Shown: positions 3,277 to 62,882 of the stretch, one piece after another | How the letters are laid out: each line of letters begins with the position of its first letter | Numbering within the stretch: the stretch's first letter is position 1 | Source of the DNA: a virus | IMG/VR virus record: IMGVR_UViG_3300011115_000874 | Location: 1 to 64,000 of that record | Reading direction: 5' to 3' (one strand) | DNA length: 64,000 nt | The notes under the pieces: generated by a model | Seen by the model: only the letters and a program-made list of their open reading frames with translations | The model's database searches: none | Told to the model about the DNA's origin: nothing | Position numbers and translations under genes: made by a program

Positions 3277-3534
3277 TTATGATCTAGTTCCTTTTCCTAT
3301 ACTACTTTTAAACCATGGCAAGCCAACACCATCTTTTCTAGCTTTTTTATGACTATCTTTAGTGTGTTGAACACCATTAATATAATACTCTTCTTTACCT
3401 TCAGATGTAATCAATGCTGGTCCTTCCCAGTTATGTAATTTACCATCTTTAATATGACGTACTGTACCATCAGGTGATGTATACTTCTTTGTTTTTAATG
3501 TTTCGTCTATGACTAATGGTTTTACTTCTTTCAT
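3277..3534 (-). CDS. Small protein with LHxxxGPA motif
   Basis: KLHNWEGPALI...EEYYINGV; own host-type promoter. Confidence 0.65.
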   Translation of the reverse strand: MKEVKPLVIDETLKTKKYTSPDGTVRHIKDGKLHNWEGPALITSEGKEEYYINGVQHTKDSHKKARKDGVGLPWFKSSIGKGTRS

Positions 3535-3589
3535 GTTGTTTGTTTATTTATTAAATATAACATCATTACTCCCAGTAGCCAAACAAGTG

Positions 3590-3829
3590 TTATATGTTTT
3601 CTAGGTAATCTAAAAAGTCTTCAAATACTTCACGTTGTTCATGTTCTGACTTTGTTATAGCTTCACGTAATAATGTTGGGACATCTTGGCTAGACTCAAC
3701 TAACAATAACTTAAATGTATTTAATGTTGATTCAGCTATCATTAAATCAGCTTGATTATCACCATAATCTTCTAAGTCGTTTAAATACAATTGAATGTAC
3801 TCGTTTAATTTATTTTTGGAGGGCTTCAT
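3590..3829 (-). CDS. Hypothetical protein
   Basis: 79 aa ORF overlapping the upstream gene end. Confidence 0.55.
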   Translation of the reverse strand: MKPSKNKLNEYIQLYLNDLEDYGDNQADLMIAESTLNTFKLLLVESSQDVPTLLREAITKSEHEQREVFEDFLDYLENI

Positions 3830-4292
3830 ATATAAGATTTTTTAAACGTTTAAATGCTTCAGTTAATTTTTGTACTTGTGAATTTAACCACTTTAAACGC
3901 TCTCCGAAACGTTTTCCTTTCATAGGATTTTCTATATTACTATCTGGGATGTATTGGTCAAATGGTTTCATGTATTCACTTCCTGTTAAGAATACAAATT
4001 GATCTTTTTCAGGGTTAATACCTGCTGATCTCATTTGTTTAATTGTTTCTTCACCCCATTTATCTTTTTCATCTTTAGGCATTTCCTTAAGAGTTTTATC
4101 ATATGGTTCTAATGTTTTAGTTAAAGGAACTAGATGATGTTTAGCAGATAAAATGAACATCTTATCTGGTTTGAGGGACTTACCATATTCTAATGTCTTT
4201 TGGAACATTGGAGAAGCAGAATACAGCTCCTGTGCTGGAGCTGCGTGTTTAGTCTTTGATTTGGTACAACTTAAAAGTACTACTTTAGCCAT
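3810..4292 (-). CDS. DUF6884-like protein
   Basis: LLSCTKSK...AQELYS...FILSAKHHLV...EPYDKTL pattern. Confidence 0.7.
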   Translation of the reverse strand: MAKVVLLSCTKSKTKHAAPAQELYSASPMFQKTLEYGKSLKPDKMFILSAKHHLVPLTKTLEPYDKTLKEMPKDEKDKWGEETIKQMRSAGINPEKDQFVFLTGSEYMKPFDQYIPDSNIENPMKGKRFGERLKWLNSQVQKLTEAFKRLKNLIYEALQK

Positions 4293-57886: not shown

Positions 57887-57903
57887 GGGCCCCAATGGGG
57901 CCC
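57887..57903 (-). terminator. Hairpin terminator
   Basis: GGGCCCC-AAT-GGGGCCC followed by TTTT on the minus strand. Confidence 0.75.
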
Positions 57904-57937
57904 ACATCCTATATAATTAAAAACACACACATGCTAC

Positions 57938-58456
57938 TTAACTGATCCTCTCTAGGTACATGTCCCCAAAGATATCATCTATCTCATCACTTATCGAATC
58001 TACATCCAAGCAAACCGCATCCTCGATTTCACTATTGACATTATTAGATAGTGTATTGTTGTCTAACTCCACCTCAATCACATTACTCCAGTTATTCAAC
58101 TCTAGTGTGACCAAGTCATCCGCGTTTAATTCCATATCAGTAACTGCTTTCTTAATTGATTCGATTACTCGTTCTGTCAACCTAGTGGCGAAGTCGATCA
58201 ACTCTGCTTTGGTAAGGTGAACATGTCCCGCGTACTTATCATCCTCTGTTACCATGTACTGGCCATCCACAACTCGGTCCTCTTTACTGAAACCAGCGCT
58301 ATCAAACTCAGGACCTTCGTCTTCCACTTCCACAGGTGACTCATCACATCCGCATCCACAAGCACCATCACTACAGATGGTTTCACCACACACTGCAATT
58401 TCAATTGCGCTAATCTTATCTTTTAACTCCATTAATTGTTCTAATACTGTCTTCAT
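57938..58456 (-). CDS. Highly acidic early protein, paralog of 62924-63268
   Basis: HLTKAELIDFATRL vs TFTKEELIEFTKTI; own promoter. Confidence 0.65.
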   Translation of the reverse strand: MKTVLEQLMELKDKISAIEIAVCGETICSDGACGCGCDESPVEVEDEGPEFDSAGFSKEDRVVDGQYMVTEDDKYAGHVHLTKAELIDFATRLTERVIESIKKAVTDMELNADDLVTLELNNWSNVIEVELDNNTLSNNVNSEIEDAVCLDVDSISDEIDDIFGDMYLERIS

Positions 58457-59962: not shown

Positions 59963-59991
59963 CAAGGTGGGACCCCGTTGGATCCCACTTG
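59963..59991 (-). terminator. Hairpin, likely terminator
   Basis: GTGGGA..TCCCAC stem with CAAG/CTTG extension. Confidence 0.6.
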
Positions 59992-60015
59992 TAAAAACAC
60001 ACACATGGCTGGGTA

Positions 60016-60225
60016 TTAACCCACTAGCTCGATAGTCTTCATACGACGACGAGACATATTGTACATAGCGTTCGCTACGTCTTGGTTCACCGAACGGTTA
60101 CCATTAATGATGTTTGAAACATGACTGGTAGAATAACCAGTTGCTTCTGCTAGGCGAGCAGTGTCACCTTGTCTTTGACGTGCATTGTAGAACGCCAATT
60201 TTGCTGTACGATTTAATTTACGCAT
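60016..60225 (-). CDS. Cro/C1-type helix-turn-helix protein
   Basis: GDTARLAEATGYSTSHVSNIINGNR. Confidence 0.8.
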   Translation of the reverse strand: MRKLNRTAKLAFYNARQRQGDTARLAEATGYSTSHVSNIINGNRSVNQDVANAMYNMSRRRMKTIELVG

Positions 60226-61463: not shown

Positions 61464-61532
61464 GTGTTTATATTTTTTAATTATGATTAAATATAACATC
61501 ATGTTCCCCAGAAGCCAAACATATCTTGACCC

Positions 61533-61673
61533 TCCTATCCGGATCTCCCTACCGGATCCACCTACCCGATAATCCTGCGGCCATAACCGGGCATTAGGCG
61601 GCCTTAGGCGGCCCTCAATGCAATACGTTACCCGATACCCCTAGACCGGGTTAGGCCGGGTCCTAGACCGGGT
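61533..61673. repeat. GC-rich cluster of short direct repeats
   Basis: CCGGATC x2, TACCCGATA x2, tandem TTAGGCGGCC x2 (61594-61613), TAGRCCGGGT x3 (61642-61673). Confidence 0.8.
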
Positions 61674-61688
61674 ATGGATTCTACGCAC

Positions 61689-61718
61689 GAGAAATGGGCA
61701 CGTTTCCGTACCCATCTC
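61689..61718 (-). terminator. Hairpin after the RadA-like gene
   Basis: GAGA-ATGGG-ACG-TTTC-CGT-CCCAT-CTC imperfect stem (GAAA loop on the minus strand). Confidence 0.6.
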
Positions 61719-61741
61719 CCTATAATTAAAAAACACACACT

Positions 61742-62545
61742 TTATTCCTCTTCGTCCGCCTCTGGCAAACTGTACTCTACTTTACTAAACCCAATTCTAT
61801 ATTTGATATACGATTCAGTATCACAATCTCTGTTTTTACTAAAATATACCTTTCTACTATCACTACCTTTAATTCTATCAATATGACACATTGCTTCGGT
61901 CATGTGTTTCAATCTGTTACTACCTGCAAAATCACCTGCTTTAGTTACTTGTTGAATGTTAATGAACGATGTGTACTTTTTTAATTTGTTACCACCTTTC
62001 TTAACAATACATTGTAAATTCAAAAACCATAACTCAGCAGCGCTTTCAGTTGTACGGTAAGTATCTTTATACATTTCAATTACCTCAGCAATACTATCAA
62101 TCGCAATCACATCATAACCTTGGTCGAACACATACTCCATTGTTTCCTTAACTGTCTCAGTGTAATTCTTCAAAAATAATGTCGGTACAACCTTAAAACC
62201 AGGCATACGTTTGCAATATTTGAAGTGACCAATTTCATCCATCTCACCGCTCACAAACAATACCTTTTTACCTCTCGCCGCTAACTTAGATAACATATCT
62301 AATACCACCGTACTCTTACCTGAACCTGGTCCGCCACATATAATCATGTTAACCGCAGGCATTAAACCTTTATCCGTTGATAAAATCGAATCCATCAACG
62401 TTCCAGTTGACATTGGGCGAAATACAGATTCGTTAAACGATAACTCAGAACCTTTAAATATTTGAACTGATTTTGGGTCGAACGCTACTGTCTCTTTAAC
62501 TTTTGGCTTGCGACCTCTTTTCTTTTGCATTACTAAATTTTTCAT
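61742..62545 (-). CDS. RadA/Sms-like RecA-fold ATPase, ATPase domain only
   Basis: GGPGSGKST, FVSGE, IAIDSI, QVTKAGDFAGSNRLKHM, KNR. Confidence 0.8.
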   Translation of the reverse strand: MKNLVMQKKRGRKPKVKETVAFDPKSVQIFKGSELSFNESVFRPMSTGTLMDSILSTDKGLMPAVNMIICGGPGSGKSTVVLDMLSKLAARGKKVLFVSGEMDEIGHFKYCKRMPGFKVVPTLFLKNYTETVKETMEYVFDQGYDVIAIDSIAEVIEMYKDTYRTTESAAELWFLNLQCIVKKGGNKLKKYTSFINIQQVTKAGDFAGSNRLKHMTEAMCHIDRIKGSDSRKVYFSKNRDCDTESYIKYRIGFSKVEYSLPEADEEE

Positions 62546-62610
62546 GTGTGTGTTTTTTATTATGAATTAAATATAACATCCCTTGTCCCGAAGGCCAAAC
62601 AAGTTGTGTA

Positions 62611-62823
62611 TTATTTTTTATTAAGAGAAGTTTTATAATTGTAAACAAAATCTCTCAATGTTTCACCTCGACAGATATCATACCCATTTTTTGCAGTGGT
62701 ATTATTTCTAGTAGCATATTCCTCTAACGCAGCATATGTTTCTGGGTATAATATTGTCTTCCACTCACTCAACTGTGTTTGTTGGATTCGAATACCTTCT
62801 CCTACGGTTAACTTCTTTGCCAT
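62611..62823 (-). CDS. Hypothetical early protein
   Basis: 70 aa; own promoter. Confidence 0.65.
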   Translation of the reverse strand: MAKKLTVGEGIRIQQTQLSEWKTILYPETYAALEEYATRNNTTAKNGYDICRGETLRDFVYNYKTSLNKK

Positions 62824-62882
62824 TGTATTATGTGTTTTTAATTATATCTGAATATAACATCACCTAACCCAAAGGCCAAACA

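Follow-up and report, generated by a model that had tools for sequence, protein, structure and literature searches.

What role can be assigned to a perfect inverted repeat whose two arms touch the start and the stop codon of a single phage gene, and does such a repeat belong to that gene alone? The question is raised by a gene for a RadA-like ATPase in the window analysed here, which covers the opening 64 kb of a virus record consisting of one contig (160,798 bp).

The RadA-like gene and its inverted repeat

The phage genome has a G+C content of 31.6% and carries nearly all of its genes on the minus strand; four tRNA genes are present. A core SD is found in 19 of the 222 ORFs (8.6%) of the whole-genome set, in which upstream positions -3 to -15, excepting -8 and -9, are 51-64% A. 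Ribosomes of the Bacteroidota type disregard the SD, and their start choice is made largely by leader accessibility (PMC6847099); an SD-independent initiation that depends on an open leader agrees with the A-rich leaders and the rare core SD of this genome. Thus, given the scarcity of SD, the A-rich leaders, and the form of the promoter described below, the host is probably a Bacteroidota-type, SD-independent organism; its type is inferred in this way, no isolate relative having been found. The initial annotation, which had linked the locus to the A-rich leaders of Bacteroidota-type initiation, agrees with the genome in this respect. In public phage records, the locus has no DNA match and a 518-aa protein of the phage is likewise unmatched. 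A search of Rfam returned two tRNAs as its sole matches and no family for the repeated 3'-UTR elements (anti-leaders) or the GC-rich spacer discussed below. It should be noted that the ORF caller starts some genes wrongly, at an ATG within the promoter box; leader statistics are based on promoter-anchored starts where such mis-starts matter. All energies were computed for 37 °C, all transcript ends are predictions, and related loci are not independent samples.

The features of the RadA-like unit are as follows:

62570..62599, minus strand: promoter of the RadA-like cassette (TTTGG and a TATATTTA box, 20 nt apart; approx. 37 copies on the strand)
62546..62563, minus strand: leader arm of 14 nt, with 4 nt more beyond a bulge; accounts for essentially all of the predicted 5' UTR
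61742..62545, minus strand: RadA-like gene (start codon 62545-62543, stop codon 61744-61742) for a 267-aa stand-alone RecA-fold ATPase with a RadA/Sms-like core and a Walker A motif
61721..61740, minus strand: trailer arm, i.e., anti-leader element T3, reverse-complementary to the transcribed leader and placed 1 nt past the RadA-like stop codon
61689..61720, minus strand: hairpin 3' of T3 (14 bp, GAAA loop), terminator-like with a poor T run

The product is a member of the RecA-superfamily P-loop ATPases, with a Walker A motif in the translation and matches to RecA and RadA in the PDB. The name RadA-like, however, is apt only in part. The ATPase domain does match that of RadA/Sms (PDB 5lkm; E 1.6e-5), but the match is loose and restricted to residues 59-240, and the full RadA/Sms layout (an N-terminal zinc finger, a RecA-like ATPase, and a Lon-like C-terminal domain, approx. 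450 aa) is not found in this protein of 267 aa, from which the zinc finger and the Lon domain are judged absent by length. Pfam matches to KaiC, AAA_25, and DnaB_C fall below the cut-offs (narrowly so for KaiC), PHROG matches are to DnaB-like and Sak4-like families, and matches in public phage records are only distant.

The sequences and positions of the two arms are firmly established. Segments 61727-61740 and 62546-62559 are complementary at 14/14 positions, both by inspection of the sequence and in an inverted-repeat search; the leader arm reaches the base directly preceding the ATG, and a single nt separates the stop codon from the trailer arm, exactly as the initial annotation had described. 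The extension by 4 bp past a bulge and the subsequent hairpin, which it had also reported, reappear when the predicted 876-nt mRNA is folded: MFE and centroid structures alike contain an 18-bp helix with a single 1-nt bulge (positions 62560-62563 pair with 61722-61725 beyond it), followed by the 14-bp hairpin. In a genome-wide leader/trailer scan with controls, the RadA-like gene stands alone among the 222 genes of the 160.8-kb genome in having complementarity of more than 9 nt. Among non-cognate leader/trailer pairs, 14 nt is reached by 3 of 8841, which corresponds to approx. 0.075 such genes expected per genome; this null includes both of the sequence families to which the arms belong, and against random sequence the match is far rarer.

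Other readings of the repeat as DNA or as a coding sequence were set aside. The ends of a mobile element and a plus-strand antisense promoter were both dropped, as the two arms lie inside transcribed UTRs and belong to sequence families. Upstream promoter boxes are missing for an antisense promoter, and the plus-strand ATGs open only 4-codon frames, while an extra gene can sit within the supposed mobile-element bracket (loci L011 and L013 of relatives). A conserved mini-ORF that starts at the ATG inside the element was also rejected; neither its frame nor its length is conserved.

Promoter-leader cassettes, anti-leaders, and their conservation

The repeat had first been taken for a device of a single gene, and in this respect the initial annotation has to be revised: the trailer arm is one member of a three-member family, and the leader arm is a variant of a repeated cassette. 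On sequence grounds, the gene-bracketing repeat is the intersection of two repeat families, not the private device of one gene.

The first family is a promoter-leader cassette of approx. 57 nt. Approx. 37 copies lie on the gene strand, each belonging to one small early gene, and the RadA-like leader arm diverges slightly from the others. The repeated promoter can be read in two ways: as TTTG and a TAnnTTT-type box separated by a 20-nt spacer, or as TTGGCy, 17 nt, and an extended -10. The upstream TTTG box lies within the 5' arm of a small hairpin (e.g., 62570-62601, 61490-61521, and 62851-62882; approx. 37 sites), the outer stem of which varies by compensatory pairs among the cassette copies. 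Each module thus has the appearance of terminator and promoter in one and resembles the PeSL promoter-terminator cassettes of T4-like phages, which have been described as recombination modules (PMC2839356, PMC4122927). Here, as in the PeSL arrays, a repeated stem-loop and an early promoter precede small variable genes, and indels between relatives occur at the modules; however, the inverted copy of the leader alone, which is found here in 3' UTRs, is absent from the PeSL description.

Leaders of this type are not confined to the phage: an A-rich, CA-repeat leader before the ATG and 3' of a TAnnTTTG-type box is also seen in three unrelated IMG/VR contigs (L029, L031, and L036). The leader motif is therefore widespread in the host range, and the inverted 3'-UTR copy is specific to the element-bearing clade. 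Metatranscriptomes (24 runs with small shares, 20 of them recorded as RNA; four of the 24 were examined) yielded contigs of relatives only, which carry no start, end, or strand information; contig breaks near 61714-61719 lie in repeated sequence. One of these contigs joins 62550 to 62828, i.e., 277 nt are skipped and the RadA-like leader is fused to the promoter region of the preceding cassette. This joint is a natural variant without the 70-aa gene 62611..62823 and fits cassette gain and loss by repeat recombination. Between the T3 hairpin and the next promoter lies a GC-rich spacer of approx. 170 nt (61520-61688) with short direct repeats; its fold z-score is only -2.1, and similar but variable spacers are present in several relatives (L001-L003, L008, and L061).

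The second family comprises, in addition to T3, two further elements:

57911..57933, minus strand: T1, 4 nt past the stop codon of an acidic 172-aa gene (57938..58456) and followed by terminator hairpin 57887-57903
59991..60007, minus strand: T2, 9 nt past the stop codon of a 69-aa HTH gene (60016..60225) and followed by terminator hairpin 59967-59988

The GU-repeat and U-run motif that characterises these elements occurs on the coding strand at just three places in 160 kb, namely T1, T2, and T3. All of them lie on the transcribed strand, 1-9 nt past a stop codon and 4-8 nt before a GC-rich hairpin; the hairpins of T1 and T2 pass a terminator scan, whereas that of T3 has no clean T run. Read backwards, the elements represent the generic early leader, which in T1 and T2 is copied together with the CATG of the start codon. 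The similarity stops approximately at the predicted transcription start, and the promoter is not copied. All three copies greatly surpass shuffles of matched composition in their complementarity to the promoter-anchored early leaders. Among 26 such leaders, 16 pair with T1 and 13 with T3 at -12 kcal/mol or better; composition-matched shuffles of T1 and T3 reach a mean of 0.2-0.4 leaders, and none of 200 attains the observed counts. The excess over shuffles is also seen in a complete 163-kb relative (G001). Within the present genome, the best leader partner of T1, T2, and T3 is that of the RadA-like gene (15, 15, and 14 nt, respectively), and the matches of T1 and T2 cover the AUG. Dedication of all three elements to this leader was nonetheless rejected, because it holds here and is not conserved in G001. 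Complementarity between leaders and 3' ends as a general design of early units was rejected as well: cognate and non-cognate pairs are alike, both in this genome (-7.06 vs. -6.91 kcal/mol) and in G001 (-6.30 vs. -6.50 kcal/mol). Anti-leader 11-mers on the sense strand show no genome-wide excess (70 vs. 57 control sites), and only the three hairpin-adjacent sites stand out among them. For the family as a whole, the best-supported interpretation is that the anti-leaders at the three early-unit ends are real, selected, RNA-level elements.

The conservation of the element is equally well established. Two scans yielded 67 related loci, among which the element-bearing ones form a clade with support of 100/100; the element follows the RadA-like unit in all members of the clade but one (L061), and the remaining 36 loci, which lie outside it, have SD-like leaders and lack the element. 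Since the bearers form one clade, their shared possession of the element and CA-type leaders amounts to one event; independent gains were rejected, as the tree allows a single origin. In 15 aligned trailers, 11 of the 13 invariant columns fall in the element. Across the clade, the adjoining hairpins are replaced or changed by compensatory pairs and the leaders drift, whereas the core of the element is nearly invariant. In L011 and L013, the RadA-like stop codon and the element have an inserted gene between them, with the element still closing the unit; what the element marks is therefore where the transcription unit ends, not the RadA-like stop. The two most distant members carry it on the same three orthologous genes despite a different gene order and protein identities of 63-64% (RadA-like), 66% (HTH), and 36-37% (acidic protein). 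The element-bearing HTH and acidic genes of these two members are located as follows:

L059:1610-1813 and 3448-3957: HTH gene and acidic gene, respectively
L060:2187-2390 and 3450-3893: HTH gene and acidic gene, respectively

In general, the genes linked to the element encode an HTH protein of 67-69 aa, a RecA-like ATPase, and an acidic protein of 147-172 aa with a CxxGxCxCxC-like motif.

Predicted pairing on the mRNA and on read-through RNA

The reading preferred here, which is given somewhat less than an even chance, is that the trailer arm is a conserved 3'-UTR anti-leader that acts at the RNA level and is placed between the last stop codon of the unit and the terminator hairpin. The transcribed element would pair in cis with an A/CA-rich leader, thereby occluding the initiation region; in an SD-independent host of the Bacteroidota type, this region must be single-stranded, and the pairing would thus block translation. 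On the RadA-like mRNA, the strongest partner appears to be its own leader, and the finished transcript would therefore close end to end, while the nascent transcript would be open. The helix could be reopened for a short time by a ribosome terminating 1 nt upstream of the element. On transcripts that read through, the element would instead mask the leader of the next cassette. More generally, T1-T3 could plausibly act in three ways, i.e., by closure of their own mRNA (for which the RadA-like gene is the strongest case), by masking of the next leader on read-through RNA, or in trans.

The predicted thermodynamics of closure are well established; pairing in vivo and an effect on translation or stability are inferred. 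In the predicted full mRNA, the pair probability within the end-to-end helix is at least 0.97 for 13 of the 14 pairs, and leader nt 5-18 are almost fully paired. By contrast, in nascent RNAs of 200-820 nt the leader is predicted to be 84-96% unpaired. Scrambled trailers reduce the pairing of the leader without abolishing it, a G/U-rich sequence still finding the A/C-rich leader. When leader/element variants of relatives are folded, leader-trailer pairing is part of the MFE structure in eight of nine, the exception being L007. The registers differ among variants (14 bp; 9+3 bp; and 10+7 bp or 11 bp, both with the AUG included). In this genome the pairing extends from -1 to -18, and in variants e, f, and g it takes in the AUG itself. 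Leader and element are also predicted to pair in L011 and L013 despite the extra gene 3' of the RadA-like stop codon, and across a two-gene RNA of 1267 nt they do so over 10+8 bp. The initial annotation had proposed that the completed mRNA pairs end to end and hides its initiation region. The prediction bears this out in that the 5' UTR is buried with high probability, but the element also pairs elsewhere. Likewise, the opening of the leader while the transcript is nascent is upheld by the predicted folds of the intermediates. As for compensatory changes in homologues, pairing is kept in the eight variants by register shifts and indels, but clean compensatory substitutions of leader and element were not found among them; in L006 and L007, the leader change A6 -> AATTAA has no compensation in the trailer, and pairing falls to 9+6 bp.

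Comparison of partners is informative about specificity. The own leader of T3 ranks 1-5 among 7-20 local leaders in 11 of 11 loci, which indicates modest specificity, and it beats the next leader in 12 of 12 loci (-14.8 to -22.3 kcal/mol for the own leader and -7.8 to -17.4 kcal/mol for the next). Because these energies are consistently superior, it can be argued from the models that own-leader closure is real for the RadA-like gene, and a 'timer' in cis is plausible as one of the three modes of its element. The own leader of the HTH gene, however, never matches T2 (-3 to -16.5 kcal/mol) and is usually its worst local partner. As T2 is unmatched to its own leader and the core of the element is frozen, it is argued that own-leader closure alone is not the common function of the family.

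An alternative is that the element serves as insulation against read-through only. It would then sequester the next initiation region, and RNA from the gene's own promoter alone would be translated, the match to the own leader being a by-product of the likeness among leaders. For T3, the relevant partner is the following:

61466..61484, minus strand: leader of the next cassette (gene start 61463), which pairs with T3 at 16/19 positions on the predicted read-through RNA

The order of features is the same at 26 of 26 junctions: element, terminator, next promoter, next leader. On predicted read-through RNA, T3 pairs with the next leader in both MFE and centroid structures (z -3.45), and T1 pairs with the next leader including its AUG (z -4.62; 0/200 shuffles). 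For these 26 junctions, which come from 12 loci, folding predicts an unpaired fraction of 0.13-0.49 for the next initiation region on read-through RNA, compared with 0.60-0.97 on own-promoter RNA, and the mean unpaired fraction is 0.31 at junctions with the element vs. 0.59 at those without it (Mann-Whitney p 1.7e-8, the loci not being independent). For T1 and T2, the next leader also outdoes the own leader as a partner in 13 of 14 cases. Yet for T3 the next leader is inferior in all 12 loci and only mid-field among the local leaders. Moreover, with a terminator between the arms, read-through RNA may be rare, and the element is present at just 3 of approx. 20 early junctions. Insulation as the sole function is considered rather unlikely.

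The same layout is known from the T4 genes e, soc, 49, and I-TevI, in which hairpins sequester the initiation region on read-through transcripts (reviewed in PMC3014915). In both cases, the upstream arm lies 5' of the proximal promoter and outside the RNA that this promoter makes, so that only upstream-initiated RNA has both arms and is masked; here, the predicted pairing buries the downstream initiation region. The arms of T4 are, however, local and gene specific, whereas in the present phage a generic anti-leader is separated from its partner by a full promoter in addition to a terminator hairpin, and the leader of the element's own unit is matched as well.

Trans-acting and other alternatives, and known systems

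With regard to closure of an mRNA on itself, the preferred reading has precedents in the 5'-3' UTR pairing of icaR mRNA in Staphylococcus aureus (PMC3868564) and the 5'/3'-UTR interaction of hbs mRNA in Bacillus subtilis (PMC5737220). In those mRNAs, as in the RadA-like one, a 3'-UTR sequence is complementary to the ribosome-binding part of the own 5' UTR, and control of translation and of RNase access has been proposed. The RadA-like mRNA has complementary 5'- and 3'-UTR segments (14/14 plus 4 bp) that cover the ribosome-loading region, its ends being predicted from the promoter box and the hairpin. The 3' UTRs of icaR and hbs mimic the anti-SD and pair with the SD, whereas here the whole A/CA-rich leader, which has no SD, is matched. 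The present elements differ further in that they form a three-copy phage family located 1-9 nt from a stop codon, and in that their pairing is predicted.

A different possibility is that the anti-leaders act in trans. The three 3' UTRs, either as part of the mRNAs or as processed fragments of seed and terminator, would pair with many early leaders and progressively shut off early translation. The layout of T1 and T2 (a conserved single-stranded seed, a hairpin, and a U run) is in favour of this proposal, as are the many predicted targets among early leaders, with the RadA-like leader as the best partner of all three elements here. A multi-target seed would be expected to keep its core frozen while hairpins and leaders drift, as is the case here, and T2 is conserved even though it has no partner in cis. 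Regulation of one mRNA by another has a precedent in Listeria (PMC8722363). This system and 3'-UTR-derived sRNAs resemble the present elements in having a conserved single-stranded seed just 5' of an intrinsic terminator, complementary to several initiation regions; the targets here are, however, the phage's own repeated early-leader cassette, and a processed species is only hypothetical. On the other hand, there is no sign of a processed small RNA, Rfam has no match, and the T2 copy of G001 prefers other leaders, i.e., the RadA-like leader as a specific target is not conserved. Bimolecular pairing would also be kinetically disfavoured relative to both of the options in cis, and no chaperone is known. 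Action in trans is considered an unlikely explanation.

The modes might also be combined. The 3' ends of three early mRNAs would then form a multi-copy anti-leader system that targets the shared early leader both on the same RNA and in trans, limiting early translation as a timer; this proposal is held to be improbable. If it were true, early translation would shut itself off as early RNA accumulates, exploiting the dependence of SD-less initiation on unstructured leaders. 

Because start choice rests largely on leader accessibility, a short complementary RNA is an unusually powerful switch in hosts of the Bacteroidota type. To our knowledge, few such switches are known in these hosts, and none in their phages. 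Being predicted to close or mask leaders, the conserved element offers a concrete model, testable by mutation, of how early protein synthesis is limited or timed in a phage whose genes each have a promoter.

It is also conceivable, at a low probability, that the function of the element is unrelated to leader pairing, i.e., that it is a site for a protein or an RNase, a module for terminator efficiency, or, as DNA, a reversed copy of a site for a factor that binds the leader DNA as well; complementarity to the leader would then be incidental or would follow from the shared site. The core of this GU/U-rich element is nearly invariant and does not covary with the leaders, the element always accompanies a stand-alone hairpin, and element and leader are identical sequences when considered as double-stranded DNA; CA-repeat, A-rich leaders of the same type also occur in unrelated contigs. 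However, neither the orientation to transcription nor the position within the 3' UTR differs among the copies, a uniformity that a DNA site would not require. In addition, the similarity spans the whole transcribed leader, including the start-codon CATG, and goes no further than the predicted start site, some terminators lack the element, and no candidate binding protein was identified.

That the element is a functionless relic, an inverted leader fragment left by recombination between promoter/leader cassettes, is extremely improbable: cassette repeats do mediate indels between relatives, including the 62550-to-62828 joint, and such indels match those of PeSL-type cassettes of T4-like phages (PMC2839356, PMC4122927), but the element is kept beside the same three genes across lineages with 36-66% protein identity in which the neighbouring hairpins have been replaced, whereas a relic would decay, and conservation over so deep a divergence therefore rules out a decaying one.

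Three further observations concern relatives of the phage. In L060, the element of the HTH gene lies directly 5' of the RadA-like promoter and leader. In the complete relative G001, a U/A-rich, anti-leader-like stretch (134340-134380, in the region of L008) is found after the 3' end of a tRNA and before the HTH gene. The same genome has a second, divergent element at 139139-139170, which matches its own RadA-like leader variant over 14 nt.
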